DNA of 64,000 bases from a virus. Location of the stretch: positions 206,182-270,181 of IMG/VR virus record IMGVR_UViG_3300024503_000015. One strand, given 5' to 3'. Numbering within the stretch: position 1 is the stretch's first letter; every line of letters starts with the position of its first letter. The notes beneath the pieces are model-generated. The model made no database searches. It saw nothing but the letters and a program-made list of their open reading frames with translations, and was not told the DNA's origin. Position numbers and translations under genes: made by a program. Below, piece by piece: positions 29,831-55,830 of the stretch.

Positions 29831-29866
29831 ACCACACTCCTTAAAAGTATAGTTATCTGGAGAAGG

Positions 29867-33616: not shown

Positions 33617-33626
33617 GGAGGGAATT

Positions 33627-33734: not shown

Positions 33735-33765
33735 ATACTAAGTATATAACCTTTTCAGCAGTTTG

Positions 33766-34221: not shown

Positions 34222-34244
34222 TTAGTGGGCAGATTATGGTGTTA

Positions 34245-34932: not shown

Positions 34933-35269
34933 ATAACTTTATAGGTGCTCTCTGTTCGACTCGAACGAAACCTGCTGAGCTCCTTATCTTCCTGGCACTT
35001 TCGGTGGGTAGTCGACTTAGCACCTAACTCGTGTTATCCAGTGTAGTTCAGCTCAGAGAGCATTTATAAAGTGTCTAGCCACTCCCACCACAGGAGCCCT
35101 AAACCGAGCTGTTACTCTGTCCACTAGCCTTTCCATTTAGACGGTGCTGAGGTCCGCCTTTGTGATTTCTCAAGTCGCTTTAAACAAGCCTTGCGGTAGA
35201 TCCAATGCACCGAGCCATTAAGGTGTAGCAATTACCTAACTCTATCACGCTGAGTTAACGCGGGGTCTG

Positions 35270-35842
35270 TTACAGTAAACCTTCTGCTTGCAGAACTGCT
35301 TCTGTTTTGTCAGACAATTGGATAGTTGTCTGAACATTTAACTCTAGGATTTCATCCTGAAGTTTTTGTTTCTGCTTTTTAGCAGTTGCCACTCTACGAC
35401 GGAATCCGTCTAGATCTTCACGAGTGAGCACACTAGTGTCTACTGTGTCGTTGTAGCCATAGATGCTACGACGGTTTTCGCTTTTGTCGTTACGGATCTT
35501 GTCCAAACGACCTGCTACAACCTTTGCGCTTTCGCGAACGGTCTTACTAGCCAATCCGTTGTAGAATTGGATTTGTTTTTCTAGATGTGCAACATCGGCC
35601 AATCTAGTGTCGATTCTAACTTCTGTGTTAGCACCGCTGACACTTTTACGAATCTCGTAAAGTGCTTCCACTAACGCATCTCTGCGTGTAAGGTTGTCGC
35701 AGAGTGTTCCTGCAACTTTGGAAATTTCTTGTTCCGCTTCTTGGAACTCGTTGATTTTTACTGTGGTCTCAAACTGGAAACCTTTGACGGTATCGTTGAT
35801 ACTGTTCTGAAGTGCATTTGCCTTACGTAGGGAGATATTCAT
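35270..35842 (-). CDS. hypothetical coiled-coil protein
   Basis: Trimmed to ATG 35842 so it does not overlap tRNA-Gly. Confidence 0.45.
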   Translation of the reverse strand: MNISLRKANALQNSINDTVKGFQFETTVKINEFQEAEQEISKVAGTLCDNLTRRDALVEALYEIRKSVSGANTEVRIDTRLADVAHLEKQIQFYNGLASKTVRESAKVVAGRLDKIRNDKSENRRSIYGYNDTVDTSVLTREDLDGFRRRVATAKKQKQKLQDEILELNVQTTIQLSDKTEAVLQAEGLL

Positions 35843-35908
35843 TTGTTTTTCCTTTAATGTTTCTATTATACAATCTTTTAAATCTAAATCAATGCCTTTT
35901 GGCAAAAC

Positions 35909-35984
35909 TGGAGCGGGAGACGAGGTTCGAACTCGCGACATTTACCTTGGCAAGGTAATGCTCTACCAACTGAGCTACTCCCGC
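35909..35984 (-). tRNA. tRNA-Gly (GCC)
   Basis: GCGGGAG/CTCCCGC, D-arm GCTCAGTTGGTAGAGC, anticodon TTACC-TTGCCAA-GGTAA, CCA. Confidence 0.7.
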
Positions 35985-36032
35985 ATATGAAGAACCTAAG
36001 GCAAAGTTTATAACTTATCCAAAGGCCATATA

Positions 36033-36108
36033 TGGTACACGGTACGGGAATCGAACCCGTCTTACTGACGTGAAAGGCCAGTGTCCTAAACCGATAGACG
36101 AACCGTGC
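36033..36108 (-). tRNA. tRNA-Glu (TTC)
   Basis: Acceptor GCACGGT/ACCGTGT, anticodon loop CTTTCAC, T-arm ACGGG-TTCGATT-CCCGT, CCA. Confidence 0.65.
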
Positions 36109-36114
36109 ATTACT

Positions 36115-36190
36115 TGGCTCCCCAGGGTGGGATCGAACCACCGACACCCTGATTAACAGTCAGGTGCTACTACCGCTGAGCTACTAGGGA
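36115..36190 (-). tRNA. tRNA-Asn (GTT)
   Basis: TCCCTAG/CTGGGGA, anticodon loop CTGTTAA, T-arm GGTGG-TTCGATC-CCACC, CCA. Confidence 0.7.
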
Positions 36191-36197
36191 ATAAACT

Positions 36198-36272
36198 TGG
36201 TACCTGGTGACAGTTTCGAACTGCCGACCCTCTCGGTGTAAACGAGACGCTCTACCACTGAGCTAACCAGGC
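36198..36272 (-). tRNA. tRNA-Val (TAC)
   Basis: GCCTGGT/ACCAGGT, anticodon loop TTTACAC, CCA. Confidence 0.7.
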
Positions 36273-36282
36273 AAACTAACAT

Positions 36283-36359
<77 letters not shown>

Positions 36360-36364
36360 AATGA

Positions 36365-36440
36365 TGGAGCGGGAGGCGAGAGTTGAACTCGTCTATTTCA
36401 GTTTGGAAGACTGACGTGTAACCACAAACACTTCACCCGC
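36365..36440 (-). tRNA. tRNA-Gly (TCC)
   Basis: GCGGGTG/CTCCCGC (one mismatch), anticodon TCAGT-CTTCCAA-ACTGA, CCA. Confidence 0.6.
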
Positions 36441-36446
36441 ATATTT

Positions 36447-36530
36447 TGGTGCCCCAGGAGAGACTCGAACTCTCACGGCTCTCGCCACTGGCTTCTAAGA
36501 CCAGCGTGTCTACCATTCCACCACCAGGGC
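36447..36530 (-). tRNA. tRNA-Leu (TAG), type II
   Basis: Anticodon loop CTTAGAA, 13 nt variable arm, T-arm GAGAG-TTCGAGT-CTCTC, CCA. Confidence 0.65.
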
Positions 36531-36531
36531 A

Positions 36532-37335
36532 TTAACTGACAATACTATTTAAGTATTCCTGAATTGTCGTTGCAATTTTTTCTTGCACAGACAATTTAAT
36601 TTTTGCATTCTCACCATTAGCACTCATATACTGTTTTCCGTATTCAGTACAATCTATACCAGTGTGCATAAACTCTTTAAAAATTTCTGAGTTGTCAGGA
36701 TTAGGATCTCCAAACCTAACAGTCGTCCATTTAATATTTTGAGAATCTAAAAACTTAATTAACATATTGTAACCATTTCTATGTCTACGAATATGCCAAT
36801 CTTTGCTTTGACTTTTTTGAAAAGCAATACCGTTTAATCGCTTTTTATGAACTTCAATTGGATATCTATCTGGATTCCATTCTCCGTCTACATAATTTTC
36901 ACGTTCAAATACATATCGTTGATTGTTATATTTGAAACTGTGTGCTATATGACTAAACGTGTAATCTGTAACTAATACATGATCCGGTTTAGGATTCTCT
37001 GCTAGGTACTGTTTTAATCTTTTGTGATGACCTATAAAATGTCCACCGTTAATAGATATATTAACTACATTGGAAACATTTAAGAAATTAGGCCATGCGG
37101 CTTTTTGTTCTTCTTCCCATAGATAATGCCAAACAACATTTTCCATATTGCCATTGGGCATAGGTGTTGTAACATTGTTTTCTTTTCTATGTTTTAGATA
37201 CCATTTAAAAACACTTCTAAAATCATTATGGAAACGTAGACTCCAAGTCCTCGGAGCATCGTCGTTGACTATGTCACCAGCCAAACAATTATTGCCATTA
37301 CTTTGGCAATCTCCTAAAATTAAAAGTGTTTTCAT
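36532..37335 (-). CDS. hypothetical protein embedded in tRNA array
   Basis: 267 aa ORF. LLILGDCQSNG N-terminus, possibly SGNH-like. Confidence 0.5.
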   Translation of the reverse strand: MKTLLILGDCQSNGNNCLAGDIVNDDAPRTWSLRFHNDFRSVFKWYLKHRKENNVTTPMPNGNMENVVWHYLWEEEQKAAWPNFLNVSNVVNISINGGHFIGHHKRLKQYLAENPKPDHVLVTDYTFSHIAHSFKYNNQRYVFERENYVDGEWNPDRYPIEVHKKRLNGIAFQKSQSKDWHIRRHRNGYNMLIKFLDSQNIKWTTVRFGDPNPDNSEIFKEFMHTGIDCTEYGKQYMSANGENAKIKLSVQEKIATTIQEYLNSIVS

Positions 37336-37349
37336 ATTAATAGTTATCT

Positions 37350-37426
37350 TGGCGCACCGTAGGGGACTTGAACCCCTGGCCTCCGACGTGACAGGCCGGC
37401 GCTCTGACCAACTGAGCTAACGGTGC
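37350..37426 (-). tRNA. tRNA-Asp (GTC)
   Basis: GCACCGT/ACGGTGC, anticodon CCGGC-CTGTCAC-GTCGG, T-arm AGGGG-TTCAAGT-CCCCT, CCA. Confidence 0.7.
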
Positions 37427-37564
37427 AAATTCTATTCTGAAACACACTAACCAACTACCAGAAGCATTTATAATGCCGTTATTCGGTTCGAGCTAATGTG
37501 TTTTAGAATAGTGCTAACGCTGAGATTATACGTTAGCCAATAGTGCCTCTAGCATTATAGTCAG

Positions 37565-37798
37565 CCTTGCGAGCCAACCTTCTCTAGACATCCACATAAG
37601 CCATTACTGTACCTATGTCCACTATCAGCATCGCCGTTTTTAAAGACAGGCAGTAGTCTTGTCGCCATATGCTATTCTACGCTATCTACTCCGTTGACCT
37701 TGCGAGCCATTCAGCGGCGCTAACCACTTACGAAACTTCCAGCATAAACAGATTTCACCTTGCGAGCTACGTCTGACTCGATTACCTTGCGGCTCGAG
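37565..37798. repeat. four dispersed copies of CCTTGCGAGC(C) motif in an ORF-free spacer
   Basis: Copies at 37565, 37698, 37758 and 37785. Related CCTTGCGG copies at 34521, 35180 and 38183. Confidence 0.5.
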
Positions 37799-37844
37799 TA
37801 TTAGATGCTTTTCACATATGACCGAGGCAGTCTTTGCATTTTAT

Positions 37845-37916
37845 AATCGATAGTTGGGATCGAACCAACAGTCCATTGCTTAAGAGGCAATTGCGTTACC
37901 ATTACGCTATATCAAA
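37845..37916 (-). tRNA. tRNA-Lys (CTT)
   Basis: Anticodon ATTGC-CTCTTAA-GCAAT, T-arm GTTGG-TTCGATC-CCAAC. No encoded CCA. First acceptor pair weak. Confidence 0.55.
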
Positions 37917-38566
37917 CCTACCGCGATGAGCTGCCTCTGTTGCTCAATAACCTTTTGGATTACTGAATACAACTCACCACATACCTTTTGTCTCGCGGAC
38001 TACTCAGTGATATTTCACGATCAATGTCCTGCATCAAAACAGTCCACTAACCATTAATATTGCATACAAGCCCTTAGGAGCGACCCCTTGGACAAATACA
38101 CTACCCTTTCTCATACCAATTCGCAAGTTGGTTTTGTTAGGAAGTCAGCACCACCCGTTACTTTTCATGCACCCTGGTTCCCTTGCGGGCCAGTCGATAC
38201 ACATTCTTTCCCTAACACTTGCTTCATTGTTACATCCACCGGTCTTCTCAGTGAACGCTACCTCGCGGTAGTGAGCAGGCTTGTTTACATGAACCATTAC
38301 TGGCGGAGTTGCGTAGGCTTACCTCCTTTGGGTTGATCACTCAACTTATTCTTCGTCAACGGCGAACCGCCAACAGGATAATAAACTACCCTTAAATTTT
38401 TACCATTAAAAAATAACATTACACCCTATGGGATGAAACGTATTTCTGAGTGGAGTTCGATTCTCCTCATAAGCCATTGTTCACGGTTTTCTCAGAAGGG
38501 TAAGATGGCCTTATCCTTCATAAGTCTATGCGTCCATAGACGATACCCGTCAATGCTATTTCTTAA

Positions 38567-38652
38567 TGGTGGATGCGGCTGGAGTCGAACCAGCAGTGCC
38601 GTAAGGCGGCGGATTTACAGTCCACTGGGGTTACCAATTTTCCTACACATCC
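38567..38652 (-). tRNA. tRNA-Tyr (GTA), type II
   Basis: GGATGTG/CGCATCC, anticodon GTGGA-CTGTAAA-TCCGC, long variable arm, CCA. Confidence 0.6.
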
Positions 38653-38739
38653 ATATCTGCTTGAAATTTTTAAAGAACTAGGTTAATTTCTTAACTAGTC
38701 TCTATTGTATATGAACTTTAGAAACTAGTCAAGACATTT

Positions 38740-38834
38740 TGGCAGTGAGTAAGGGATTCGAACCCTTGATCCCCGTTTTTGCAGGAATGCCTTCTTAGCA
38801 GGAAGGTGCCTTCGACCAGCTCGGCCAACTCACT
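38740..38834 (-). tRNA. tRNA-Ser (GCT), type II
   Basis: AGTGAGT/ACTCACT, anticodon CCTTC-CTGCTAA-GAAGG, long variable arm, CCA. Confidence 0.65.
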
Positions 38835-38878
38835 ATATTTGTATTATACGATCAACTGTTAAACAAGTCAACACCTTT

Positions 38879-38968
38879 TGGCCGAAGCGGTGAGATTCGA
38901 ACTCACGGACCCTTTCGGATCGTCTGTTTTCAAGACAGGTGCAATAAACCGGACTCTGCCACGCTTCG
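38879..38968 (-). tRNA. tRNA-Ser (TGA), type II
   Basis: CGAAGCG/CGCTTCG, anticodon CCTGT-CTTGAAA-ACAGA, long variable arm, CCA. Confidence 0.65.
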
Positions 38969-39014
38969 TTGTTTTACTTGTATAATTCGTTGTAGATAGA
39001 ATCTGCTACAAATG

Positions 39015-39092
39015 TGGTACCCCTGCTCCGATTCGAACGGAGAGAACTTCTCCTTTTGAGAGAGACGACTTTACCAATTTGTCCACAGGGGT
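39015..39092 (-). tRNA. tRNA with anticodon CAA (Leu-decoding) but short type-I variable loop
   Basis: ACCCCTG/CAGGGGT, anticodon TCTCT-CTCAAAA-GGAGA, 6 nt variable loop, CCA. Identity uncertain. Confidence 0.45.
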
Positions 39093-39097
39093 ATATC

Positions 39098-39171
39098 TGG
39101 TGCTCAAGGAAAGAATCGAACTTTCGATTGTGTCGTACCAAGACACTGGTATACCATTTACCTACAAGAGC
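39098..39171 (-). tRNA. tRNA-Thr (GGT)
   Basis: Anticodon GTGTC-TTGGTAC-GACAC. Acceptor stem has two U-U mismatches. CCA. Confidence 0.5.
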
Positions 39172-39173
39172 CT

Positions 39174-39245
39174 TGGCGCCTCTGAGTAGATTCGAACTAC
39201 TATAACCTGGTTTAGAAGACCTGGCACTGCTCCATCAGCAGAGGC
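39174..39245 (-). tRNA. tRNA-Arg (TCT)
   Basis: GCCTCTG/CAGAGGC, anticodon loop CTTCTAA with one A-A mismatch in the stem, CCA. Confidence 0.5.
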
Positions 39246-39246
39246 A

Positions 39247-39323
39247 TGGTACCCTTGGTTGGATTCGAACCTACACACAACGGATTTTAAATCCATTCGC
39301 ATTACCAATTAGCGTACAAGGGC
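39247..39323 (-). tRNA. tRNA with anticodon TAA (Leu-decoding) but type-I architecture
   Basis: GCCCTTG/CAAGGGT, anticodon ATGGA-TTTAAAA-TCCGT, 5 nt variable loop, CCA. Confidence 0.45.
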
Positions 39324-39330
39324 ATAATTA

Positions 39331-39406
39331 TGGTGCCGCCCCTTGGGATCGAACCAAGTTCCTCGGTGCTTCAAACCGGTGCAATGACCACATTTGCTAA
39401 AGCGGC
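39331..39406 (-). tRNA. tRNA-Phe (GAA)
   Basis: GCCGCTT/GGGCGGC (G-U pairs), anticodon loop TTGAAGC, T-arm CTTGG-TTCGATC-CCAAG, CCA. Confidence 0.6.
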
Positions 39407-39412
39407 GATATT

Positions 39413-39487
39413 TGGGGTGAAGCCGGGAATCGAACCCTGCCTTACTGTTTCACAGACAGCCGTGCGGACCACTACACTAGCAACACC
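39413..39487 (-). tRNA. tRNA-His (GTG) with extra 5' G-1
   Basis: G-1:C73 pair, anticodon GCTGT-CTGTGAA-ACAGT. Acceptor has two U-U mismatches. Confidence 0.6.
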
Positions 39488-39489
39488 AT

Positions 39490-39566
39490 TGGCCGGCCCT
39501 GAGAGACTCGAACTCCCAACCTCCAGTTTCGAAGACTGGCACTCTAATCCATTGAGTTAAGGACCG
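39490..39566 (-). tRNA. tRNA-Arg (TCG)
   Basis: CGGTCCT/AGGGCCG, anticodon CCAGT-CTTCGAA-ACTGG, CCA. Confidence 0.6.
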
Positions 39567-39573
39567 TTAAAAT

Positions 39574-39647
39574 TGGCAGGCCTACCAGGACTCGAACCTG
39601 GAACGACTGAGTCAAAGTCAGTTGTGTTACCATTACACCATAGGCCA
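39574..39647 (-). tRNA. tRNA-Gln (TTG)
   Basis: Anticodon ACTGA-CTTTGAC-TCAGT, T-arm CCAGG-TTCGAGT-CCTGG, weak 1-72 pair, CCA. Confidence 0.6.
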
Positions 39648-39873
39648 ACAGATTGAATTTGTAAGTAGTTGCCCCATCGTTATAGCAACCATTCACCCAT
39701 GTATATAAAGCCGGCTGGGACTCGGTACGTCACTTGGGATACTAGTCCAGTTAGCAACCAATCTGCAGGGATCTTCCGATCCCCCGGGAGTTGAACCCGT
39801 CCCCTTTTACTATTAAGGTAGTTCGAACTTACCTACAATAGCGTGACATTCTCTTGCTGACACTTACAAAACT

Positions 39874-39946
39874 TGGTGCCCCAGGATGGAATCGAACCAC
39901 CACACCCTGCTTACAAAACAGGACCTCTACCACTAAGGATACAAGG
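39874..39946 (-). tRNA. tRNA-Thr (TGT)
   Basis: GCCCTTG/CTGGGGC, anticodon CCTGT-TTTGTAA-GCAGG, CCA. Confidence 0.6.
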
Positions 39947-39953
39947 GCAAAAT

Positions 39954-40031
39954 TGGTCTCCACGGTACGATTCGAACGTACAGCCTCCTGACTCCAGATC
40001 AGGCCGTCTACCAGATTGACATTACGCAGAG
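39954..40031 (-). tRNA. tRNA of uncertain identity (loop TCTGGAG, C at position 33)
   Basis: Good acceptor CTCTGCG/CGTGGAG and T-arm GTACG-TTCGAAT-CGTAC with CCA. Anticodon loop is non-canonical. Confidence 0.35.
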
Positions 40032-40041
40032 ATAAAAATAA

Positions 40042-40117
40042 TTGCGACCGAAGGACTCGAACCTTCGCGGTAATCTAGAATGCCCCGGCAAGGCCGGTTA
40101 ACCCACCATTGTCGCAA
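40042..40117 (-). tRNA. tRNA-like element whose anticodon arm is replaced by a 5 bp/3 nt hairpin
   Basis: Perfect acceptor TTGCGAC/GTCGCAA, D-arm and T-arm CGAAGG-TTCGAGT-CCTTCG. Middle CCGGC-CTT-GCCGG hairpin. No CCA. Confidence 0.35.
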
Positions 40118-40120
40118 ATT

Positions 40121-40195
40121 TGGTGGAGGCCGAGGAAATCGAATCCTTCTAGACATCTTCCTTGCAAGGGAAGACCGTAGCCCACTACTGCCCCC
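40121..40195 (-). tRNA. tRNA-Ala-like (TGC) with truncated D-arm and degenerate T-arm
   Basis: Anticodon CTTCC-CTTGCAA-GGAAG, T-loop TTCGATT with a stem mismatch, D region only 12 nt, CCA. Confidence 0.35.
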
Positions 40196-40280
40196 AAATT
40201 GGTGTTAGTTTCTATACCACCCATTGAAACTAACAAACATTGAGAGAACATGGATGAACCCACAAGATCTCTATTTGCTC

Positions 40281-40355
40281 TGGTATAGCGTACGGGGATC
40301 GAACCCGCCTAGTCACCTTGAAAGGGTGATGACCTCCCCAGAAGTCGAACGCTAT
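40281..40355 (-). tRNA. tRNA-Glu (TTC), second copy
   Basis: ATAGCGT/ACGCTAT, anticodon TCACC-CTTTCAA-GGTGA, CCA. Confidence 0.55.
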
Positions 40356-40361
40356 GTAAAT

Positions 40362-40435
40362 TGGTTCCTGGACCGAGAATTGAACTCAGAATGACCGGTT
40401 ATCAGCCGATTGTTATACCATTTAACTATCCAGGA
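40362..40435 (-). tRNA. tRNA-Ile (GAT)
   Basis: TCCTGGA/TCCAGGA, anticodon ATCGG-CTGATAA-CCGGT, CCA. Confidence 0.65.
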
Positions 40436-40617
40436 ATAATACTATACAAAAAGAAACTAACGACAATGCGCTATGCACCCAGAGTCTATAGTTCCTGGCT
40501 GTGGTTAGTTTGTTTTTATACACTACCATATGGAAGCACTCTTATGCCTTTTTCGTCATAAGATGGTGGCCCGTCCTTACTACTGACGCTATGCGACCAG
40601 TTAAGAATGCTTTCATA

Positions 40618-40692
40618 TGGTAGGGGCACAGAGAATCGAACTCTGATTTACGGGTTAAAAGCCCGCTACTTTAACCATTAAGTTATACCCCC
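40618..40692 (-). tRNA. tRNA-Lys (TTT)
   Basis: GGGGGTA/TGCCCCT, anticodon GCGGG-CTTTTAA-CCCGT, CCA. Confidence 0.65.
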
Positions 40693-40695
40693 ATA

Positions 40696-40771
40696 TGGTC
40701 CCTGCTGTGAGATTCGAACTCACACCTCATTGATTAAGAGTCAAGTGCGCTACCATTGACGCTAAACAGGG
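40696..40771 (-). tRNA. tRNA-Lys (CTT), second copy
   Basis: CCCTGTT/AGCAGGG, anticodon loop CTCTTAA, T-arm GTGAG-TTCGAAT-CTCAC, CCA. Confidence 0.5.
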
Positions 40772-40942
40772 TTGTACGTATTGATTTGATTTTACGTGCC
40801 AACCCTAGACCATACGGGAGATCTAGAGTGACACTAACGTTTAGCACGTTTCATGCTACTCTCCTTTTAATATTTTTTCAAAACTTGATACAACACGAAC
40901 ATTATAACTAACACTACAAGTACTGCCATAATATTCTCCTTA

Positions 40943-41032
40943 TGGTCCCCCGTTGAGGAATCGAACCTCATCCTGGACCTTATCTAGATTAATCGGTTAT
41001 AAGCCGACCTGCTCTCCATGAGCTAACGGGGG
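40943..41032 (-). tRNA. type II (long variable arm) tRNA with anticodon TAT
   Basis: Perfect acceptor CCCCCGT/ACGGGGG, anticodon GTCGG-CTTATAA-CCGAT, ~21 nt variable arm, CCA. Confidence 0.45.
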
Positions 41033-41040
41033 ATATAACC

Positions 41041-41118
41041 TGGAGCAACGGGTCAGATTTGAACTGACGGTTTTACGGATTTGCAATCCGTTGCATTGGG
41101 CCTCTCTGCCACCGTTGC
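41041..41118 (-). tRNA. tRNA-Cys (GCA)
   Basis: GCAACGG/CCGTTGC, anticodon ACGGA-TTGCAAA-TCCGT, T-arm GTCAG-TTCAAAT-CTGAC, CCA. Confidence 0.65.
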
Positions 41119-41123
41119 ATTAT

Positions 41124-41198
41124 TGGCGTACCCCCAGGGACTCGAACCCCGACTAGCAGTTTTGGAGACTGTCGTGCTGCCATTAACACTAGGGATAC
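41124..41198 (-). tRNA. tRNA-Trp (CCA)
   Basis: GTATCCC/GGGGTAC, anticodon loop CTCCAAA, CCA. Confidence 0.65.
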
Positions 41199-42560: not shown

Positions 42561-42994
42561 AGTGTGTCTCCTTTAGTTGCTTTGGCTATGCTTTTATAGC
42601 CTTTGTAAGTTGGGTGTACGTGATCCGGGCTAGTTTCGTGCTTTCTAGCATCTATTACAAAGTCCTTGTATTTTTCTGCTACTGCAAGAACTGCCCGTCT
42701 CTTATCGTCCTTGATATTAGGTACAATCCAATAAACACGAGTGGCGTCTACTAGTTGTCTTAGACTGTCTAGTTCCTCCACTGTGTTTATTTTTGCTGTA
42801 TCGTTTGACCCTAGACTAATGATTACATTTTTTGCCTGTGTAGTGCCCTGAGTGTGTAACACATGACGATTAACATAGTCATAACTGTTAATGCCACTCT
42901 TAGCACGAGTAACACATTCTGTACGAACTTGTCCTACTCCTACTGCTAGGCTATCGCCTAGGATTAAACAATCAAGCATAATTGATCCTATCAA
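42557..42994 (-). CDS. SGNH/GDSL hydrolase
   Basis: LILGDSLAVG block I and DHVHP DxxH block V. Confidence 0.55.
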   Translation of the reverse strand: MIGSIMLDCLILGDSLAVGVGQVRTECVTRAKSGINSYDYVNRHVLHTQGTTQAKNVIISLGSNDTAKINTVEELDSLRQLVDATRVYWIVPNIKDDKRRAVLAVAEKYKDFVIDARKHETSPDHVHPTYKGYKSIAKATKGDTL

Positions 42995-43530
42995 AGAGTT
43001 TCGCCGCCTACTGTACGGTTACAAGCGCACAACTCACCAGTTTGTAGCGCATCAAGAATACGTAAAGTTTCTTCTGGGCTACGACCAACGTTCAAGTTGT
43101 TGACAGTAACGTGCTGGATAACGTTCTCTGGGTCAACAATAAATGTAGCACGTAGAGCCGCACCTGCTGGAGCATAAAATACACCCAACTGCTCAATCAA
43201 TGACAACTCGCCACGCTGTGTGTCTGCAAATTGTGTATGTGTAATTTTCTGTAAGTCTGGGTGTGCTTTTTGCCATGCGATTTTACAAAACTCGTTATCT
43301 GTGCTACCTGTTAGCAATACTGCGTCACGGTCAGCAAAGTCACCTGCTAGTTTATCGTAGGCTACAATCTCTGTAGGGCAAACGAATGTGAAGTCCTTTG
43401 GGTAGTAAACGATTACTTTCCACTTGCCAGCAAAACTTTCATCTGTAATGTCAAAGAAAGCATCTTCTGGTTGTCCTGGCTTAACACCAGTAATTGCGAA
43501 TTTTTCTAATTTATGTCCAACTGTTTTCAT
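42991..43530 (-). CDS. ahpC: peroxiredoxin AhpC/Prx
   Basis: FTFVCPTE peroxidatic Cys motif and C-terminal GELCAC resolving Cys. Confidence 0.85.
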   Translation of the reverse strand: MKTVGHKLEKFAITGVKPGQPEDAFFDITDESFAGKWKVIVYYPKDFTFVCPTEIVAYDKLAGDFADRDAVLLTGSTDNEFCKIAWQKAHPDLQKITHTQFADTQRGELSLIEQLGVFYAPAGAALRATFIVDPENVIQHVTVNNLNVGRSPEETLRILDALQTGELCACNRTVGGETL

Positions 43531-45020: not shown

Positions 45021-45779
45021 TTACGCAAATATTTCTAATGCAGTACCGCATTCTGAACAGAACTTAGCGTGAGCTTTATTCTGCTTGCCGCAAGTTACGC
45101 ATTTTGGTTTGGCTTTAACTGTCACTGCCTTTTCAACAGGTTTGTTATCTCCCAAGTCGCCTACTAGTCTCAGCACAATATTGTGTACTGTAGATTCTAG
45201 TGCGCCAACTGTGACATGTTGGAATGACTGAGTGGACTTGCTACCTGGAACAGTAATGCCGGTTTCATTTTTAAAACTTGCGGCACTTGCTGTTACATTC
45301 ATACTGTTAAGACTGGCATTGGTAGAGTAAGTAGCACCCATCGGGCTTGCCCAATCTCCTGTACTACCACTAATACCCCTAGTAAGAGTAGTTGAGCTCC
45401 AAGTAGGAATGTTTAGAATAGGGCGTGGAATTTCAAATTGATATTCAACACGGATTAACCCGTCTTCTAGTTTGATACCACGTGGACCATCTTCAATTGC
45501 ACTTGTGCGTTCGATAAACTTAAACTTGTTACCTTCGGAGAGATTGCCGTTTTTAATCCAACGCTCTAAGTCGACAGTCCGACCCGGGTCAATGACCAAT
45601 CCGCCAGGGACGACATTCTCTCCGTCGATAAACACATTTACGACAGCACGAGTTGTATTAAGATTTTTGAGTAAGATACTATATTCGCTAGCGAACGGAA
45701 TATAGACTGTGTCCTTGAATTCACGGAGCACTTTGCCTTTTGATTTGATAGAGGCTACTAGTTTTTGATTATACATCAT
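45021..45779 (-). CDS. hypothetical protein with C-terminal zinc ribbon
   Basis: C-terminal CVTCGK...CSECG motif. TATAAATA motif upstream on the minus strand. Confidence 0.5.
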   Translation of the reverse strand: MMYNQKLVASIKSKGKVLREFKDTVYIPFASEYSILLKNLNTTRAVVNVFIDGENVVPGGLVIDPGRTVDLERWIKNGNLSEGNKFKFIERTSAIEDGPRGIKLEDGLIRVEYQFEIPRPILNIPTWSSTTLTRGISGSTGDWASPMGATYSTNASLNSMNVTASAASFKNETGITVPGSKSTQSFQHVTVGALESTVHNIVLRLVGDLGDNKPVEKAVTVKAKPKCVTCGKQNKAHAKFCSECGTALEIFA

Positions 45780-45863: not shown

Positions 45864-46083
45864 TCGGCACTTCGATCAGTTGAAAAATTCTCCAATCTCT
45901 GCGATCAGCCACTTTTTTCTTCTTGTTCTCTTCCTGAACATACTTCAAGAAGCTCTGTGCCTGTTCCATAGTACCGTAGAAGATGTCATTACCGTAAGCA
46001 TAAGTTCCTACCGAGCCGGTTTCGCCTTCCCAGTAATGTCCTACTGCGTAGTTAAACTGTTTTGCTTGTTTCTTCTTTGCCAT
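45859..46083 (-). CDS. hypothetical protein
   Basis: 74 aa ORF. Confidence 0.4.
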   Translation of the reverse strand: MAKKKQAKQFNYAVGHYWEGETGSVGTYAYGNDIFYGTMEQAQSFLKYVQEENKKKKVADRRDWRIFQLIEVPI

Positions 46084-46300
46084 GATTGTCTTTCATATAT
46101 GGCGGAATCTTTTCAGATTCTTCTTGTGTCATAAACCGTTGTGGTTCATGTGCCCAATGTGGCATCCATGACCAACCCCACGACTTCCAATATTTGGCAA
46201 CTAAGTTATTAGCGATAAGAATACCGCCTAGGATTATCAAGAATCCTAAAACTGTTAAAACTGATCCGGCTAAAAATACTGCCGCCTGATCCATATCCAT
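46052..46300 (-). CDS. hypothetical membrane protein
   Basis: 82 aa with an N-terminal transmembrane helix. Confidence 0.4.
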   Translation of the reverse strand: MDMDQAAVFLAGSVLTVLGFLIILGGILIANNLVAKYWKSWGWSWMPHWAHEPQRFMTQEESEKIPPYMKDNHGKEETSKTV

Positions 46301-46321: not shown

Positions 46322-46395
46322 TGGTGCGCTAGACAGGAATCGAACCTGCTATCGGGAGTTTAGAAGTCCCTGCCTATCCATTGAGCTTCAAGCGC
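46322..46395 (-). tRNA. isolated tRNA, best fold gives anticodon CTA (amber-suppressor-like); alternative register TCT
   Basis: Acceptor GCGCTTG/CTAGCGC, T-arm GCAGG-TTCGATT-CCTGT, CCA. Anticodon stem GGGA/TCCC with loop TTCTAAA. Confidence 0.4.
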
Positions 46396-46396: not shown

Positions 46397-46606
46397 TTAT
46401 CGTTCCCAAATTGTAGTCATGTTGAGCCAACGTGCTACGGGTTTAACTACCAGCGGAATCATTAAGCAAAGAATCCAAACCATTTGGATGTATTCTGCTT
46501 CTGTAAATTTGTAGGCAATGTTAGCAAAGCCAACTACTAGATAAATGGCGGACAGCCAAAAGAGGTAATGTCCGCCACTGCGTTGCCAAAGTAAACGTTT
46601 TAACAT
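46397..46606 (-). CDS. hypothetical membrane protein
   Basis: 69 aa with two predicted transmembrane segments. Confidence 0.4.
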   Translation of the reverse strand: MLKRLLWQRSGGHYLFWLSAIYLVVGFANIAYKFTEAEYIQMVWILCLMIPLVVKPVARWLNMTTIWER

Positions 46607-46607: not shown

Positions 46608-47408
46608 TTACTTACCGTTGGTAGTAACAGTAGGAGTTACAACACCGTTGATAACCAAAGTTTGACCTTTGAAGTTGGCAATAGCATCGGGCAACTTACG
46701 CATGGCTTCTGCTTCTGCCTCCGCCTTCAACAATGGAATTGCCATCGGATTGGCCTGCATCGATTCGTTACGTTTCTTAGCAGTAGCAACTTTGACTTCT
46801 TCGGTCTTGTACTCGTTCTTGGCTTTGACCAATTCGTTGGCGCTGGCTACAACAGAGTCTGCAGGCACAATGTTACGAATAAGAACTTGTCCAATTACAA
46901 TAGTACCATCCAACTTTTCTTCAGCCAGTGTACGAGTAACTTGTTCTTTGATTTCAGTTTCCATTGCTTGACGTGCATCACCCATTTCCAATGCTTCATA
47001 CTTACGTGCGGCTTTGTAGATAGCATTACGTGAAGCATTAAAGATGTAATTATACATCAAGTAAACATCGCCATTATGACTAGCGTGGAATGATTTATTT
47101 TTTGTATTATAAATCTCGGCCACTTGTGCTTGATTGATATTATAAGTAACCAACGCATCAAAGTCCTTCATTGTGCTATTATCTTTAGCCAATGGAGTCA
47201 TGTCTTCAACTTTGACACTAATTTCCTTAGTTGGGAATGTAAGTACATCGCCGATAATAGTTTGGTTAAACGAACCAGGAAGCAATTCCTCATTCTTGAC
47301 CTGCTTGTCAAAACCGACACGGAGACCAACTTCACCAGTTTCGATACGAGTACAACCCGTTGCCAAAACTGCGGCGGCAAGAATAGAGAGAGTTAAAATA
47401 CGCTTCAT
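46608..47408 (-). CDS. SPFH/band-7 (stomatin-prohibitin-like) lipoprotein
   Basis: Signal peptide with lipobox-like LATGC. SPFH core followed by an AEAEAEA coiled coil. Confidence 0.7.
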   Translation of the reverse strand: MKRILTLSILAAAVLATGCTRIETGEVGLRVGFDKQVKNEELLPGSFNQTIIGDVLTFPTKEISVKVEDMTPLAKDNSTMKDFDALVTYNINQAQVAEIYNTKNKSFHASHNGDVYLMYNYIFNASRNAIYKAARKYEALEMGDARQAMETEIKEQVTRTLAEEKLDGTIVIGQVLIRNIVPADSVVASANELVKAKNEYKTEEVKVATAKKRNESMQANPMAIPLLKAEAEAEAMRKLPDAIANFKGQTLVINGVVTPTVTTNGK

Positions 47409-47590
47409 TGTTTTTCCTTAAAATAAAATTACGATTGCTGTCATCACCATTAGTGCTAACAGTGAAACAATTATACTATAGGCCAATGACTTTGTCAATG
47501 ACCAACGCTCCTTGCCCTCCATTTTCCTCCAGGTAGTAATACCTAAATGGATCAGGACGGCAAGGATTGCAAAGACTAGCCAAAGTCTAA

Positions 47591-48412
47591 TCATTGTGTT
47601 ACCTTAAGAGCGGCATCGACTGCGGCCTTAACAGCGGCATCCAACTGCTCTTGTGTGTAGGCTTCATCCTGGACAGGTGCTTTGAAAGCATCGTCTGGAT
47701 GTACGCCCAATTCACCAATAACTTCGTAGCGGCAAGCACGACCCTTAGACGCATTGTAGTCAGTAGGAATGCTTACAACATCACGTGGATTGATCTTAAG
47801 GATCACTGTACGTTCACCACCAAAGTGGTCCAAGTACTCACGTGAGCAGAAGTGCAGACCAGAACTACAAGTGTTTTCGGCCTTGTCGTCAACTTGGTTG
47901 CGCTCCATTTCAACAATCTGTCCAACAGAGTTATCCATTGTACCACTGTGGCAATCCTTATAGTCCTTACGAACTTTCTTGTATGCCAAGAAGTGACCGT
48001 CATTGGTAATTGGCAAATTACCCTTTTCCAAAAACTTGTACAGTTCTGTAACAGCACGATGACTTGGGTTGCTCATCAAGTTCTCCATAAACTGAACCAT
48101 AGGCTCAATTGGGAAACCATCTTGGTACATAGAAATAATTCTATCTGCCAATGTGTTGTGGAACTCTTGTCCCTTCCAGTAGAACTTGTCTCCTTGGATA
48201 GCGATGTTACCAGCACCATATTCGAGCACAATTTTCTTTGGCTCAATTACTTCCTGTACTGTGTCCCAGTCACCTGTCTTAATTGCTTCTTTGACTTTCT
48301 CATAGGCAATATGAGTAGAAGTAATTGTATGTGGATTGTTGTTAATTACAACAACAATATTTTTGCCTTGAATCAAATATGGAAACATTTTAAACACCTT
48401 TCTGTGTGTCAA
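47591..48412 (-). CDS. rIIB: rIIB lysis-inhibition protein
   Basis: FMENLMSNPSHRAVTELYKF...CSSGLHFCSREYLDHFGG...INPRDVVSIPTDYNASKGRACRYEV parallels the T4 rIIB C-terminal half. Confidence 0.85.
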   Translation of the reverse strand: MTHRKVFKMFPYLIQGKNIVVVINNNPHTITSTHIAYEKVKEAIKTGDWDTVQEVIEPKKIVLEYGAGNIAIQGDKFYWKGQEFHNTLADRIISMYQDGFPIEPMVQFMENLMSNPSHRAVTELYKFLEKGNLPITNDGHFLAYKKVRKDYKDCHSGTMDNSVGQIVEMERNQVDDKAENTCSSGLHFCSREYLDHFGGERTVILKINPRDVVSIPTDYNASKGRACRYEVIGELGVHPDDAFKAPVQDEAYTQEQLDAAVKAAVDAALKVTQ

Positions 48413-50552
48413 TCAAATTAACGTACTCAGCAACTTCATGATTTGGCGCACTACGCAAGTATGCCAACAACGGATAACGCTTACTAATGGTTGCACATTC
48501 ATCAGTAAACTTCTGCACTTGAGCTTCTGGACTAAAGGTTACACCAGGAGCATAACGATTGCACAAACGCTTCAAACTTTGTTCACTGTACTTAATCTTT
48601 TCATAGCCCTTGAACTGTTTTACCAATTCAACATACGGACTATTTTTGTTAGTAACATTAAACATGATGCTTTCATTATACTGCAACAGGTTGAAATTGT
48701 CAACAGCCTGCAATACCAAACTCATAACAAGTTTATTATCAATTGGCTTGCTCAAAACACTAACAATGTGCTCTTCAATGTTGACCCAATTCTTTTGAGT
48801 CTTAATAAACTCAATGTCGCCTTTACGCACACCGTAGATTGTAGTCTTCAAACCAGTTAAACCACAGTCTTTCAAATCGTTGTAAAACTCTTTGACGTTG
48901 CTCATACCATACTTACTTTGAACTTCAAAACCGCTCAAAGGCAAGTAGTAGTAAGTAGTAGCATCATCAAAACTGTCAGCCTTACCAGCATCACGCCAAA
49001 CCATTTCGCGTTCACGATAGTAGCCACCTGTGCCACGTTCTTGCAAACACAAGATTGTAACGTTCTTTGCCAAACCAACTTGACGTTCTTTCTTCGACAA
49101 CGAACTGGCTTTTACAATACGATCCTCTGGAGGATTAGCAATAGCCTTAAAGAACGCCTTAGTGTTCATGACTTTGTCTTTGTTTAATTTATCTAAGACA
49201 AAGACTGTAGCACTATTGTCTGGCTTAGTTTCACGATAGTGGAACTTGGCACGTTCAAGGGCACCGATATTGGTATCATTAACGATAAACTGTACACGGT
49301 CCTCTACAGTAATGCCCCAGTAGGCAAACATATCGTAATGCCCTTGAGCGTTCTTGTTATCACTGTATTGTGTGTCAGCCTTACGGTTAGGATATGCCTT
49401 AGTGTGCTTGGCATAGTTAAAACCTCTGATAACGATGTTGTATTTCTTAGCAAGATCTTCAACACCCATTTTGAAAGTCTTAGTACCGCCGTAACGGCTG
49501 TCATCGAATGTAGACAGGTTAGTGTCTGCTACATACTTCTTAACCGCCGCTTGCCACAAACCATTATGATACTTCTTAGTCAAGAAGATAGCACGATCCC
49601 ACAGGTTAGGAATAGCATCTGCTTCTTTGGCTACGTGAACAGCCAACTGAGCATTTACTGCCTCTAACTTGCGCTTGATGGCATCTACAGTCTGAGGAAT
49701 GTATGACAAACCTTCACGGCTTGCTTGGAAGTCTAATTCGCCAATAGCAAAGTGCATTTCCAAACCACAGTTCAACAACAGGCGCAATTCGCCCATAGCC
49801 TGTTCTGTGTTAGGAACATCTATAGGATAGGCAATATTGCCCATGATGGCTACAGCACGACGGTGTCCGTCTGTGTATGAGTGAACGCCTGGAATGATAT
49901 CCTTAGCATCATATTCTACATCACGGAAACGGAAGTCGCTGACACCGCTGATAACTGGGCGCAGAGCAAAATAAGTGTAGACATATCGTGCTTCTTCTTG
50001 GAACTTACTAAAGTCCCAACGGTCACTGACTGAGAATTTAACTTCGACACCGTCGGGTTCGCTGGTTTGTTCTTCACCCATCTTGGCAATACTAGGCACA
50101 CCTGCTTCGTTAATAAAAGCAGAGTAAACACCTTTAACGCCGTCTTTGATTGCGGTTACCGTGAAGTTATCTGTATAACTAAAAGGACTCTTAGAACCCA
50201 AACCTAATGCGCCGATAAAATCGTTGCTGTTGGTCTTAGTACTTTCAAAGTATGTGGTATAGATGTTTGTAACTTGTTCGTGGCTCAAACCAGTACCATA
50301 GTCACGAATACTAAACCAAGGTTCCAATTGGTTGGGCAAGTGTACATCAAAAGGAGTATCTTGTTTGCCTGCGGCAGTATGGCTATCTACTGCGTTACAA
50401 CTCAGTTCACGGATGATAGCACGGATCTTGTTAGCATACAAGCCTGAACTCAAAATGTTAAATGCCTTAGCAGAGTTGCGAATACGGAACTCGCCCACTT
50501 CACTTACATTACTCAAAATTGCTTCGTTTTGCGGAGCATTGTTAATAATCAT
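48390..50552 (-). CDS. rIIA: rIIA protein (GHKL ATPase-like N-terminus)
   Basis: Start trimmed to MIINN. AKAFNILSSGLYANKIRAIIRELSCNAVDS, DYGTGLSH and GALGLGSKSPFSYTD match the T4 rIIA N-terminus. Confidence 0.85.
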   Translation of the reverse strand: MIINNAPQNEAILSNVSEVGEFRIRNSAKAFNILSSGLYANKIRAIIRELSCNAVDSHTAAGKQDTPFDVHLPNQLEPWFSIRDYGTGLSHEQVTNIYTTYFESTKTNSNDFIGALGLGSKSPFSYTDNFTVTAIKDGVKGVYSAFINEAGVPSIAKMGEEQTSEPDGVEVKFSVSDRWDFSKFQEEARYVYTYFALRPVISGVSDFRFRDVEYDAKDIIPGVHSYTDGHRRAVAIMGNIAYPIDVPNTEQAMGELRLLLNCGLEMHFAIGELDFQASREGLSYIPQTVDAIKRKLEAVNAQLAVHVAKEADAIPNLWDRAIFLTKKYHNGLWQAAVKKYVADTNLSTFDDSRYGGTKTFKMGVEDLAKKYNIVIRGFNYAKHTKAYPNRKADTQYSDNKNAQGHYDMFAYWGITVEDRVQFIVNDTNIGALERAKFHYRETKPDNSATVFVLDKLNKDKVMNTKAFFKAIANPPEDRIVKASSLSKKERQVGLAKNVTILCLQERGTGGYYREREMVWRDAGKADSFDDATTYYYLPLSGFEVQSKYGMSNVKEFYNDLKDCGLTGLKTTIYGVRKGDIEFIKTQKNWVNIEEHIVSVLSKPIDNKLVMSLVLQAVDNFNLLQYNESIMFNVTNKNSPYVELVKQFKGYEKIKYSEQSLKRLCNRYAPGVTFSPEAQVQKFTDECATISKRYPLLAYLRSAPNHEVAEYVNLIDTQKGV

Positions 50553-50660
50553 CTTTAGCCTTTCTGCGCCTAGTTGTTTACTGTATGTGTATATTATAGC
50601 AAATGAACTGTGGTCTGTCAACTGTCGATGAGTCCAAAATATGAACCCATCGACACAAGA

Positions 50661-52027: not shown

Positions 52028-52104
52028 GTGATCTTTCTATGAAATAAAACTGCGATACTGTGTATTATAGGCTCGGACAGGGCATCTGTCAATGTGTTTG
52101 GTAA

Positions 52105-52135
52105 AATAAAAAAGGGCCCGAAGGCCCTTTGGTTG
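52105..52135 (-). terminator. rho-independent terminator (second copy of GGGCCCGAAGGCCC hairpin)
   Basis: Hairpin followed by TTTTTTATTTT on the minus strand. Confidence 0.55.
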
Positions 52136-52395
52136 TTTGGGTTACAAGGTAAGTCCTACCCCGGAGTTGCAGTTTCTTAGGCTGCTACTAGACCATTGTC
52201 GGCTGTGAAGCCTTCAACAGTGAAGTACTCAAATGTAGATGCGTTTGCATTTACTAGTTTTGCTTGATTTACGGTCATCGCCTACCGTGTTGCCGTCTCT
52301 ACTATCTACCCCTGTCGAAACCATGGCAGGCCCATCATAAAAACACAATACCAAAGTAAATTTACAATGAATACCAAAGTAAATTTATGTCCTTA

Positions 52396-52435
52396 TGGTG
52401 GACCTGGCGGGAGTCGAACCCGCGTCCAGAAGTCC
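52396..52435 (-). other. tRNA 3'-half-like minihelix (T-arm + acceptor + CCA) lacking D and anticodon arms
   Basis: GCGGG-TTCGACT-CCCGC T-arm, then CAGGTCC-A-CCA, with a complementary GGACTTC only 5 nt upstream. Confidence 0.3.
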
Positions 52436-52463
52436 TTCGCTTTGAAGGGATTACAACAATTCT

Positions 52464-53042
52464 TTAAACGCCTGCCTTTGCTAATGTGCCAAATATCCAA
52501 GGTTTTGGATCTAAGTCAATTGTCCAAGATGTCGGTTCATTTCTCATATCTTTTTTGTACACAATATTTATTTGGTCGTGTGTTAGTTTGACTAAGAAGC
52601 CGTCTGTTAATTGTTTTAGATTAGCCTTAACTGTTGCGTAATCTACAAAGGCAACAGCGAATGTTCCTTTAATTTGGACTATCATTAAATGATTAAAAAC
52701 TTTGTCTAGTGTAGTTCTTTGATTCTTACTTTCGTAAACATTTTTTAATTTAAGACTGATTGTCTTTTTAGGAGTTCCTGACTTTGCGTAGAACAAAGGT
52801 TCGTTGCCAGTTTTAACTTCTACGTCGCCATTGGTCCAATCGGTAAATTTTATATCGTAATCGCGAACGTCAGTCCACTCGATGTTCTTTTTATGATTAG
52901 ATAATTGCATTGCCGCAATAATGAATTTTTCTTTCATCATTCGATTTGTGGATTCATTTAATACTGTCTGATGACAGATGTTATTACAAGCATCTGAAAA
53001 CTTGTCAATATCTACCCAATCTAAAAATTCATTGTACTGCAT
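52464..53042 (-). CDS. hypothetical protein
   Basis: 192 aa ORF. Confidence 0.5.
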   Translation of the reverse strand: MQYNEFLDWVDIDKFSDACNNICHQTVLNESTNRMMKEKFIIAAMQLSNHKKNIEWTDVRDYDIKFTDWTNGDVEVKTGNEPLFYAKSGTPKKTISLKLKNVYESKNQRTTLDKVFNHLMIVQIKGTFAVAFVDYATVKANLKQLTDGFLVKLTHDQINIVYKKDMRNEPTSWTIDLDPKPWIFGTLAKAGV

Positions 53043-55266: not shown

Positions 55267-55830
55267 CTATACTATATGATCCGCTACCCCAAAGTCAACC
55301 ACTTCTTGTGCAGTTAGGTAAACATCGCTGGCTGGTAGTAGTTTTGCTTTAACTCTACTTTTAACCAAGCCTGTTGTTTCGGTTAGAATTGTTATCATCT
55401 TTTCATTTAACAATTCGGTTTCTTTCATTTCTGCTTTTAGGTCGTGATACTTAGCATCCATTCCGGATGTAAATTGGTGACACATAAAACTAGTATTACT
55501 AGCCGCATAACGATGCTTTTTATCACCGCAGGCAAAAATTAAAAATGCCGCACTCATGACAGCACCAATTCCAATAGTTCTTACAATATGTGGACTGCTA
55601 CGCATTACATCAATTAACGCTAGAGCCTGATACAAATCTCCGCCCGTGCTGTTAATATACAAGGTCAAAGTTCTACCTTCGCCTTGTAAATTTTCATAGA
55701 GAATCCATTTGATGGCTTCGCCTACTGTATCTTCATCTATCTCTCCATTCAAATAAAAAGTAGAATTTTCCAGTAATCTAAGATCAATTCTATCTTCCGC
55801 ATTGAACTCATCAATTTTTTTCATTTTCAC
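55267..55830 (-). CDS. divergent ClpP-like serine protease (second Clp paralog)
   Basis: Clp-fold motifs INSTGGDLYQALALIDV, Ser in GAVMSAAF and His in FMCHQF. Diverged from canonical ClpP. Confidence 0.6.
   Translation of the reverse strand: MKMKKIDEFNAEDRIDLRLLENSTFYLNGEIDEDTVGEAIKWILYENLQGEGRTLTLYINSTGGDLYQALALIDVMRSSPHIVRTIGIGAVMSAAFLIFACGDKKHRYAASNTSFMCHQFTSGMDAKYHDLKAEMKETELLNEKMITILTETTGLVKSRVKAKLLPASDVYLTAQEVVDFGVADHIV

Follow-up and report, generated by a model that had tools for sequence, protein, structure and literature searches.

What does a phage that keeps the standard genetic code do with a tRNA that reads the amber codon, UAG? The question is raised by a 74-nt gene on the minus strand of a 64,000-nt stretch of DNA (positions 206,182 to 270,181 of IMG/VR record IMGVR_UViG_3300024503_000015; hereafter the window), whose source is an uncultured jumbo phage. 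An initial annotation, made from the letters alone, had marked at 46322-46395 an isolated tRNA with a candidate CUA anticodon, leaving its strand unstated. With a probability of about 0.9, this is a real CUA tRNA gene of functional type, belonging to a phage-borne amber-suppressor family of XacN1-like jumbo myoviruses and a large uncultured clade. The kind is already known from Xanthomonas phage XacN1 (2018); what is added here is the breadth and covariation of the family, its signature at the 31:39 pair, its synteny, and a controlled search for recoding across the clade, which came out negative.

Identification and structure of the tRNA gene

The gene and its anticodon loop are as follows.

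46322..46395, minus strand: tRNA with anticodon CUA (amber/UAG-reading), 74 nt, found by ARAGORN, Rfam RF00005 and family model R1
46359..46365, minus strand: anticodon loop UUCUAAA with a C31.C39 mismatch closing the loop, from the covariance-model alignment and a structure-anchored parse of 38 members

ARAGORN places a minus-strand tRNA exactly at 46322-46395 (sequence on that strand GCGCUUGAAGCUCAAUGGAUAGGCAGGGACUUCUAAACUCCCGAUAGCAGGUUCGAUUCCUGUCUAGCGCACCA) and reads its anticodon, CTA, at position 33, and Rfam RF00005 gives it 38.4 bits, passing the gathering score of 29 (E-value 6e-5 in a 26-kb search and 4e-7 in a local one), so that the tRNA marked initially is confirmed by both. It is isolated as well, lying 5.1 kb from the nearest member of a 31-tRNA array. 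The family model R1, which was built from the window clade with the XacN1 copies kept out of the training set, scores it at 74.3 bits. In the covariance-model alignment, a GGGAC/CUCCC anticodon stem with a single C.C mismatch at 31:39 encloses the 7-nt loop UUCUAAA, and U33, C34-U35-A36 and A37 are assigned, the anticodon occupying window positions 46361-46363. The GGGA/TCCC register with anticodon CUA that had been proposed is thus upheld by the Rfam model, by ARAGORN and by the 38-member family alignment.

The CCA end is encoded and preceded by discriminator A73, and GG at 18-19, U33, A37 and the T-loop GTTCGA are all present, whereas A8 replaces U8. Mismatches stand in three stems (U6.U67, C13.A22 and C31.C39); the T-arm and the anticodon loop are intact, as are A73, CCA and the first three acceptor pairs. 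The window copy is therefore among the less canonical members of its family. Its single-sequence minimum-free-energy fold shows no cloverleaf and is no better than those of shuffled sequences (z = -0.89). Free-energy folds of lone tRNA sequences usually miss the cloverleaf, and this result was set aside as uninformative.

Two other identities were weighed, a tRNA-Arg(UCU) in the other register and, following the ARAGORN label, a pyrrolysine tRNA; either is extremely improbable. Several resemblances speak for arginine. CUUCUAA, the loop of tRNA-Arg(UCU), occurs within the window copy, whose acceptor, D-arm (GCUCAAUGGAUAG, with A20) and T-arm resemble those of phage tRNA-Arg genes; tRNA-Arg genes are also its best canonical matches, with 76% full-length identity to an E. 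coli phage tRNA-Arg (loop CUUCUAA) and 67.2 bits for the Bas90 tRNA-Arg with the family model. In the UCU register, however, just 3 of the 5 anticodon-stem pairs form, nucleotide 26 is lost, and C falls on the universally conserved U33 position in the 27 of 38 members with loop CUCUAAA; A20, although present in the window copy, is not conserved across the CUA family. The initial annotation had left this register to covariance folding, which did not favour it: the covariance model, ARAGORN and the family alignment all give CUA, and tRNA-Arg(UCU) was rejected by the covariance alignment, the family covariation and the 38-member parse. The Arg-like resemblance may reflect ancestry, and the family-model scores, in which Arg(UCU) at 67.2, Lys(UUU) at 64.3 and Gly(GCC) at 56.5 bits are the nearest canonical tRNAs to family members at 74-80 bits, are not decisive on origin or amino acid. 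In studies of E. coli amber suppressors, GlnRS and LysRS are favoured by U35, and the presence of A20 can make a tRNA an arginine acceptor.

As to pyrrolysine, ARAGORN put the label ‘tRNA-Pyl’ on every CUA tRNA examined, and this appears to be its generic label for CUA anticodons. A tRNA-Pyl is marked by a variable loop of 3 nt, a D-loop that is very short and lacks GG, an anticodon stem of 6 bp, and pylS/pylBCD nearby. The window copy has a 4-nt variable region, a 7-nt D-loop with GG and a 4-5-bp anticodon stem, on which grounds tRNA-Pyl was rejected, and no pyl genes were found among the window ORFs (open reading frames) scanned.

A conserved CUA tRNA family in related phages

Related IMG/VR contigs number hundreds and reach 384 kb; that they are of freshwater origin is our assumption. 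In these contigs 44 copies of the CUA tRNA were found, 36 of them distinct, and contigs as long as 330-384 kb (IMGVR_UViG_3300021963_000021 is one) are among the carriers. Near-identical copies of the window tRNA occur in two other contigs, and the near-identical copy in L002 keeps G6-C67. Many of the family's loci share one protein gene.

45021..45779, minus strand: 252-aa (amino-acid) protein with a C-terminal zinc ribbon (Pfam Zn_Ribbon_1), conserved downstream syntenic partner of the tRNA, from Pfam and synteny

The CUA tRNA lies upstream of this gene and on the same strand in 41 of the 57 viral loci retrieved through the protein, and the synteny persists where protein identity is only ~48%. 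Compensatory double changes were detected by RNAalifold at 17 of 19 stem pairs. In the structure-anchored parse, whose 38 sequences include XacN1, U33-C34-U35-A36-A37 is invariant (38/38) and so is A38, which by another count is missing from one member and which the MAFFT alignment A1 lists at 90% or above, with the window mis-registered there; A73 is found in 36/38, and CCA is encoded in all 38. The loop is CUCUAAA in 27 members, and the 31:39 pair is non-Watson-Crick in 33/38 (C.A in 23, C.C in 6 and A.C in 4), both XacN1 copies included. The variable region is 4-6 nt long across the family, which is that of class I tRNAs; A8 occurs in 10/38 members, and Rfam scores range from 34 to 63 bits. 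Taken together, the covariation, the invariant U33-CUA-A37, A73, the encoded CCA and the 44 copies show purifying selection on an amber-reading tRNA. A 21-nt variant of the anticodon arm searched against 185,579 bacterial and archaeal genomes returned one chance match, inside a protein-coding gene.

Comparison with XacN1 and other stop-reading tRNAs

A megablast of the locus against cultured phages returned no match, and the best rIIA match is that of XacN1 at 29.5% identity. BLAST of a typical family member against cultured phages led to the annotated tRNA-Sup of XacN1. This phage (AP018399.1) carries two tandem CUA tRNAs at 36047-36122 and 36130-36205 of its record, reported as tRNA-Sup genes by Yoshikawa et al. 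(2018; PMC5852040), and the family model scores them at 79.6 and 78.8 bits, as against canonical tRNA ceilings of at most 56.5 bits in the window and at most 67.2 elsewhere. XacN1 has 18 amber stops among 592 proteins; in-silico read-through of these stops added no similarity, and target genes were not identified by the authors (PMC5852040). Another CUA suppressor tRNA, a single one, is described for the Ralstonia jumbo phage RsoM2USA, a relative of XacN1 (PMC8504454), which is likened here by description only.

The likeness of XacN1 to the window extends from the tRNA, with its CUCUAAA-type loop and non-Watson-Crick 31:39 pair (C31.A39), to the locus, in which a Band 7 gene (ORF080) lies upstream of the tRNA-Sup pair and a permuted transfer-messenger RNA (tmRNA) lies nearby, and to the phage itself, a jumbo myovirus with the standard code and few amber stops. 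The window tRNA is thus a member of the XacN1-type jumbo-phage tRNA-Sup family by sequence, structure and context. The two phages differ in that XacN1 has two tandem copies per terminal repeat whereas the window has a single copy between small ORFs, in that the window copy has U32, C31.C39 and A8, and in that protein identity is only about 30%. The two XacN1 copies (L232 5912-5987 and 5995-6070) do not differ in the D, anticodon and T arms, but they do in the acceptor stem and the discriminator (A73 vs G73), and could therefore be charged differently. The permuted tmRNA of XacN1 (L232 7066-7486), ~1 kb downstream of tRNA-Sup, is absent from the GenBank annotation.

The loop CUCUAAA is that of E. 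coli supF and of engineered efficient amber suppressors. Indeed, supF tRNA-Tyr(CUA) and T4 psu1+ tRNA-Ser share the anticodon of the window family, and most family members have the supF loop, but supF and psu1+ are laboratory mutations of sense tRNAs of class II with long variable arms, whereas the window family is natural, conserved and of class I. A natural case of another kind is phiKp24, which carries a tRNA-Sup-TTA with ‘arginine identity’ (PMC8386662); it resembles the window in being a standard-code jumbo phage with a stop-reading tRNA of unexplained purpose and an Arg-like body, and differs in its anticodon and its unrelated lineage, being likened by description only. Code-15 phages, such as Lak megaphages and crAss-like phages, have in common with the window a phage stop-reading tRNA and a standard-code host (bioRxiv 10.1101/2021.08.26.457843). 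They differ in having many in-frame TAG codons in late genes and sometimes RF2, and in Lak the anticodon is UUA. The tRNA(UUA) of Lak-B1 (L234, MK250020.1, 394-466) nevertheless resembles the CUA family in its D-arm and in a mismatched 31:39 pair (A31.C39) and reaches 65.6 bits with the family model, which hints at a broader group of phage stop-reading tRNAs.

Usage of UAG in the window and its relatives

The initial annotation had raised read-through of UAG stops or an alternative genetic code. Outside RNA genes, the window has a coding density of 88% under the standard code, with uninterrupted ORFs of up to 884 aa and tight operon spacing. For a wider view, the window and 231 fetched sequences (3.01 Mb) were translated with TAG as X; the clade regions sampled were the rII, tRNA, replication and tail-fibre regions. 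TAG read-through would materially lengthen just 12 ORFs in the 3.01 Mb, and all of these are same-frame neighbouring genes or non-coding leaders. No homology-supported in-frame TAG was found in the 64-kb window and essentially none in the 3.0 Mb of relatives, so that the suggested alternative code finds no support here. Under the strict filter, TAG interrupts 1 gene and TAA 1 gene in 3.0 Mb; three TGA sites in one gene family resemble upstream leader sequence. TAG is absent from tail-fibre genes as long as 2,744 and 3,091 codons, the former lying on the same 364-kb contig as a CUA tRNA (L052, L185). The gene interrupted by TAG is the ATP-dependent DNA ligase of L139 (IMGVR_UViG_3300034198_007309), a 9-kb contig that also has a CUA tRNA at 5708-5783; its single in-frame TAG, at 3498, falls where Lys stands in 20 of 27 homologues and is the one hint of an amino acid being inserted at UAG. 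Besides a suppressed codon, a population variant or a sequencing error might explain this TAG.

Among the ~60 window ORFs scanned, no Pfam or PHROG match to a release factor, a synthetase or a tRNA-modifying enzyme was obtained. The in-frame TAG usage that defines a code-15 recoded phage is absent from the sequence surveyed, its accessory code-change genes are absent from the window ORFs scanned, and the tRNA is not part of such a system. Three results were discarded. Stop-to-stop ORF totals under alternative codes were dropped, since removing any stop codon inflates such totals; a first all-frame search for TAG spanned by homology gave 2,609 ‘sites’, nearly all antisense or off-frame, and was replaced by filtered versions; and at window 31520/31544, as in L024, L025 and L041, TAG seemed to stand in place of Trp but proved to be off-frame and upstream of real starts.

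As a terminator TAG is rare. Its share of stops is 4.7% among 1,129 non-redundant genes and 4.4% within 135 conserved families, the window has 2 in 52, and among the three stop trinucleotides counted in all frames its share is 26%. A fixed TAG stop was found in none of the 135 conserved families, and the ORFs flanking the CUA tRNA in the 44 loci terminate in TAA or TGA. Of the biased or internal UAG usage with which the initial annotation had linked its reading, internal usage is therefore absent and a bias stands in the form of depleted TAG stops, the depletion being weak evidence. A longer distance to the next stop after TAG proved to be an artefact of spurious antisense ORFs and same-frame neighbours and is gone in conserved families. 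An endonuclease-like gene (phrog_8420; 1472-2599, minus strand) has a TAG stop in the window and in L140, L143, L144 and L145, followed by a second in-frame TAG 3-4 codons on in the window, L144 and L145; as a conserved TAG stop this family was rejected, the stop being not fixed when the wider family is taken (4 TAG, 2 TGA and 1 TAA).

Genomic neighbourhood of the tRNA

The tRNA stands among the following minus-strand features.

47470..47498, minus strand: sigma-70 promoter-like site TTGACA-17-TATAAT with 12/12 consensus matches, from a consensus scan
46608..47408, minus strand: Band 7/SPFH lipoprotein gene, from Pfam Band_7 and phrog_200
46397..46606, minus strand: 69-aa predicted membrane ORF with its TAA stop 1 nt before the tRNA 5′ end, from the ORF list and the sequence
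46052..46300, minus strand: 82-aa ORF whose N-terminal segment is hydrophobic and which begins 21 nt downstream of the tRNA, from the ORF list
52086..52549, minus strand: permuted (two-piece) tmRNA gene 5.7 kb upstream of the CUA tRNA, from ARAGORN and Rfam

The 1-nt distance between the stop of the 69-aa ORF and the tRNA suggests co-transcription, and the sigma-70-like site is a candidate promoter that may serve the Band 7 gene, the 69-aa ORF, tRNA-CUA and the downstream ORFs. Neither the 69-aa nor the 82-aa ORF has a family match. For the 252-aa neighbour, a role as a tRNA-related enzyme was considered and dropped, family scans giving the zinc ribbon only. The homology of relatives ends at 46604, and in L085 the tRNA directly follows rIIB, which indicates that the Band 7 gene is a cassette inserted between rIIB and the tRNA; loci retrieved via the Band 7 lipoprotein mostly have no CUA tRNA. 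Beyond this cassette lie rIIA and rIIB (47591-50621), and the window also encodes an ATP-dependent DNA ligase and, at 6275-10300, tail-fibre or baseplate-like genes.

In about a third of related loci, as in XacN1, the CUA tRNA has a tmRNA within ~6 kb. That of the window has an unusually long predicted tag, ANASTFEYFTVEGFTADNGLVAA, and tags in relatives (L087, L089, L108 and others) are long, or short such as ANDSSFALAA. Two ClpP homologues are encoded at 12691-13314 and 55267-55830 on the minus strand (Pfam 221 and 115 bits), the second of which terminates in TAG followed immediately by TGA. Proteins tagged by tmRNA are degraded by ClpP, and the presence of ClpP homologues alongside a phage tmRNA and an amber suppressor is suggestive.

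The 31-tRNA array (33542-41198) is on the same strand as the CUA tRNA. A full-length GOLLD RNA (Rfam RF02032, 207 bits) lies inside it at 37517-37980 on the minus strand, with a tRNA-Lys(CUU) embedded at 37844-37917; a tRNA-Ile(UAU) call at 40943-41032 (minus strand) is of unusual length, 90 nt, and two tRNA-like matches to the family model at 39954-40031 and 33627-33705 (minus strand; 26 and 19 bits) have no ARAGORN call. T4-like tRNA-repair genes near the array, at 28707-31502 and 15347-16234 on the minus strand, comprise an RNA ligase (phrog_562), an AAA_33 kinase resembling polynucleotide kinase (PNK), an Rv2179c-like 3′-5′ exoribonuclease and a metallophosphoesterase. Elsewhere in the window are a 683-aa fusion of a CHASE2 sensor domain and an adenylate/guanylate cyclase domain (58827-60878, minus strand) and auxiliary genes at 3378-3935 and 42991-43530 (both minus strand) and 57362-58805, whose products are a QueD/PTPS-like enzyme, an AhpC/TSA peroxiredoxin, a fatty-acid desaturase and an S11 D-Ala-D-Ala carboxypeptidase.

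Possible functions of the CUA tRNA

The explanation that we favour, tentatively and at somewhat less than even odds, is that the tRNA causes UAG read-through in the infected cell, mainly on non-phage mRNAs, those of the host or of competitors. The gene would be transcribed from the minus strand with its neighbours, possibly from the sigma-70 site at 47498-47470, and the tRNA would be excised by host tRNA-processing enzymes and charged by a host synthetase, Gln, Lys and Arg being the candidates. It would then compete with release factor 1 (RF1) at UAG codons of the infected cell. The phage itself would be largely insulated by its standard code, its lack of in-frame TAG and its ~4% TAG stops, and the UAG codons met would mainly be those that terminate host mRNAs or the genes of mobile elements in the same cell, where C-terminally extended or non-stop products could exert a host-takeover or anti-competitor effect. 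The steps from transcription to competition with RF1 are those of general tRNA biology and the insulation was observed here, while the host-directed effect is what we infer; host or competitor mRNAs are favoured as targets because the phage offers almost no UAG codons.

Several points weigh against this explanation. About a quarter of the syntenic loci have no CUA tRNA within 6 kb, and the window copy, with three stem mismatches and A8, may work poorly. TAG-terminated conserved genes have no closer backup stops (p = 0.26-0.59), and closer ones might be expected if suppression were efficient. Amber interruptions are not above ochre ones (1 vs 1 in 3.0 Mb), so that tolerance of amber is not visible, and the clade genes surveyed are those of the rII, tRNA, replication and tail-fibre regions. 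Furthermore, ~4% TAG stops is near ordinary proteobacterial and phage values, and the insulation may not stem from selection by a suppressor.

The tRNA might instead have no dedicated target, being a buffer against amber mutations in a very large genome or marking a stage at which a suppressor has been acquired and recoding has not begun, which we consider rather unlikely. The combination of rare TAG stops, a suppressor tRNA and no in-frame TAG matches the intermediate step in the model of Borges et al. for how stop codons come to be reassigned; the same authors saw a TGA suppressor in a phage that keeps the standard code and is related to recoded ones (bioRxiv 10.1101/2021.08.26.457843). The essential DNA ligase of L139, with one in-frame TAG and the tRNA on the same contig, and the Lak tRNA(UUA), with its shared D-arm and 31:39 mismatch (65.6 bits), are also in keeping with such a stage. 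However, the tRNA is conserved, with compensatory changes, in XacN1 and in relatives in which the identity of the neighbouring protein is down to ~48%, which argues for long-term selection and not for a passing stage; amber is not enriched over ochre interruptions, and buffering rare mutations would be a weak selective force for one gene. Less probable again is a partial recoding of code-15 type, in which a few in-frame UAGs in late genes (capsid, lysis) would time late expression. It draws on recoded crAss-like and other phages, where in-frame stops concentrate in structural and lysis genes and replication genes are standard (bioRxiv 10.1101/2021.08.26.457843), on a sampling of rII, tRNA, replication and tail-fibre regions and not of capsid and lysis cassettes, and on the position of the tRNA among small membrane-protein ORFs adjoining rIIA/rIIB. 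Yet tail-fibre and baseplate-like genes amounting to many thousands of codons, one of them on a tRNA-bearing contig, have no in-frame TAG, no homology continued past any of the 18 amber stops when the complete genome of XacN1 was read through (PMC5852040), and no release factor, synthetase or other code-change gene was found in the window.

A different doubt concerns the window copy itself, which might be decaying and non-functional in this genome while the family functions elsewhere. Its 38.4-bit Rfam score is near the bottom of the 34-63 range of the family, A8 stands for the near-universal U8, and to U6.U67, where the near-identical L002 copy keeps G6-C67, are added C13.A22 and C31.C39. Decay is nonetheless improbable: the gene passed both tRNA finders with its T-arm, anticodon loop, first three acceptor pairs, A73 and CCA intact, near-identical copies exist in two other contigs, and A8 in 10/38 members marks a family variant and not a lesion. 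Very unlikely, finally, is a non-decoding role, in which the RNA might, for instance, be a tRNA-like element with a structural or regulatory task, or might serve a host anticodon nuclease, or another defence aimed at tRNAs, as a decoy or substitute. The T4-style repair set of RNA ligase, PNK-like kinase and exoribonuclease suggests that tRNA-targeting defences matter to this phage, and no decoding target was found; but conservation is strongest in the features for decoding UAG (U33, CUA, A37, A38, the acceptor end and CCA), and no anticodon nuclease is known to target a CUA tRNA.

Read-through of non-phage mRNAs, the favoured explanation, has an extended form that we regard as a long shot, in which the CUA tRNA, the permuted tmRNA and the two ClpP homologues make up a termination-reprogramming module. 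UAG read-through would drive ribosomes past the stops of host mRNAs, and the products would receive the tag of the phage tmRNA, which ends ...LVAA or ...ALAA, and be degraded by Clp proteases. If this were true, host or competitor proteins encoded by UAG-ending genes would be selectively removed by a phage that avoids TAG stops.

Implications

Natural amber suppressors in phages that do not use UAG as sense are an unsolved puzzle. The case of XacN1 is one tip of a widespread, selectively maintained jumbo-phage family and not an oddity, and the family can be recognised by its CUCUAAA-type loop, mismatched 31:39 pair, A73 and conserved synteny, often with a tmRNA nearby. In annotation, a tRNA-Sup alone is insufficient reason to switch a phage genome to code 15. 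The family also bears on models of how stop-codon reassignment starts in phages, and XacN1 on Xanthomonas citri offers a tractable system for its function. That so widespread a family is maintained makes a stronger case for a function other than decoding recoded phage genes.

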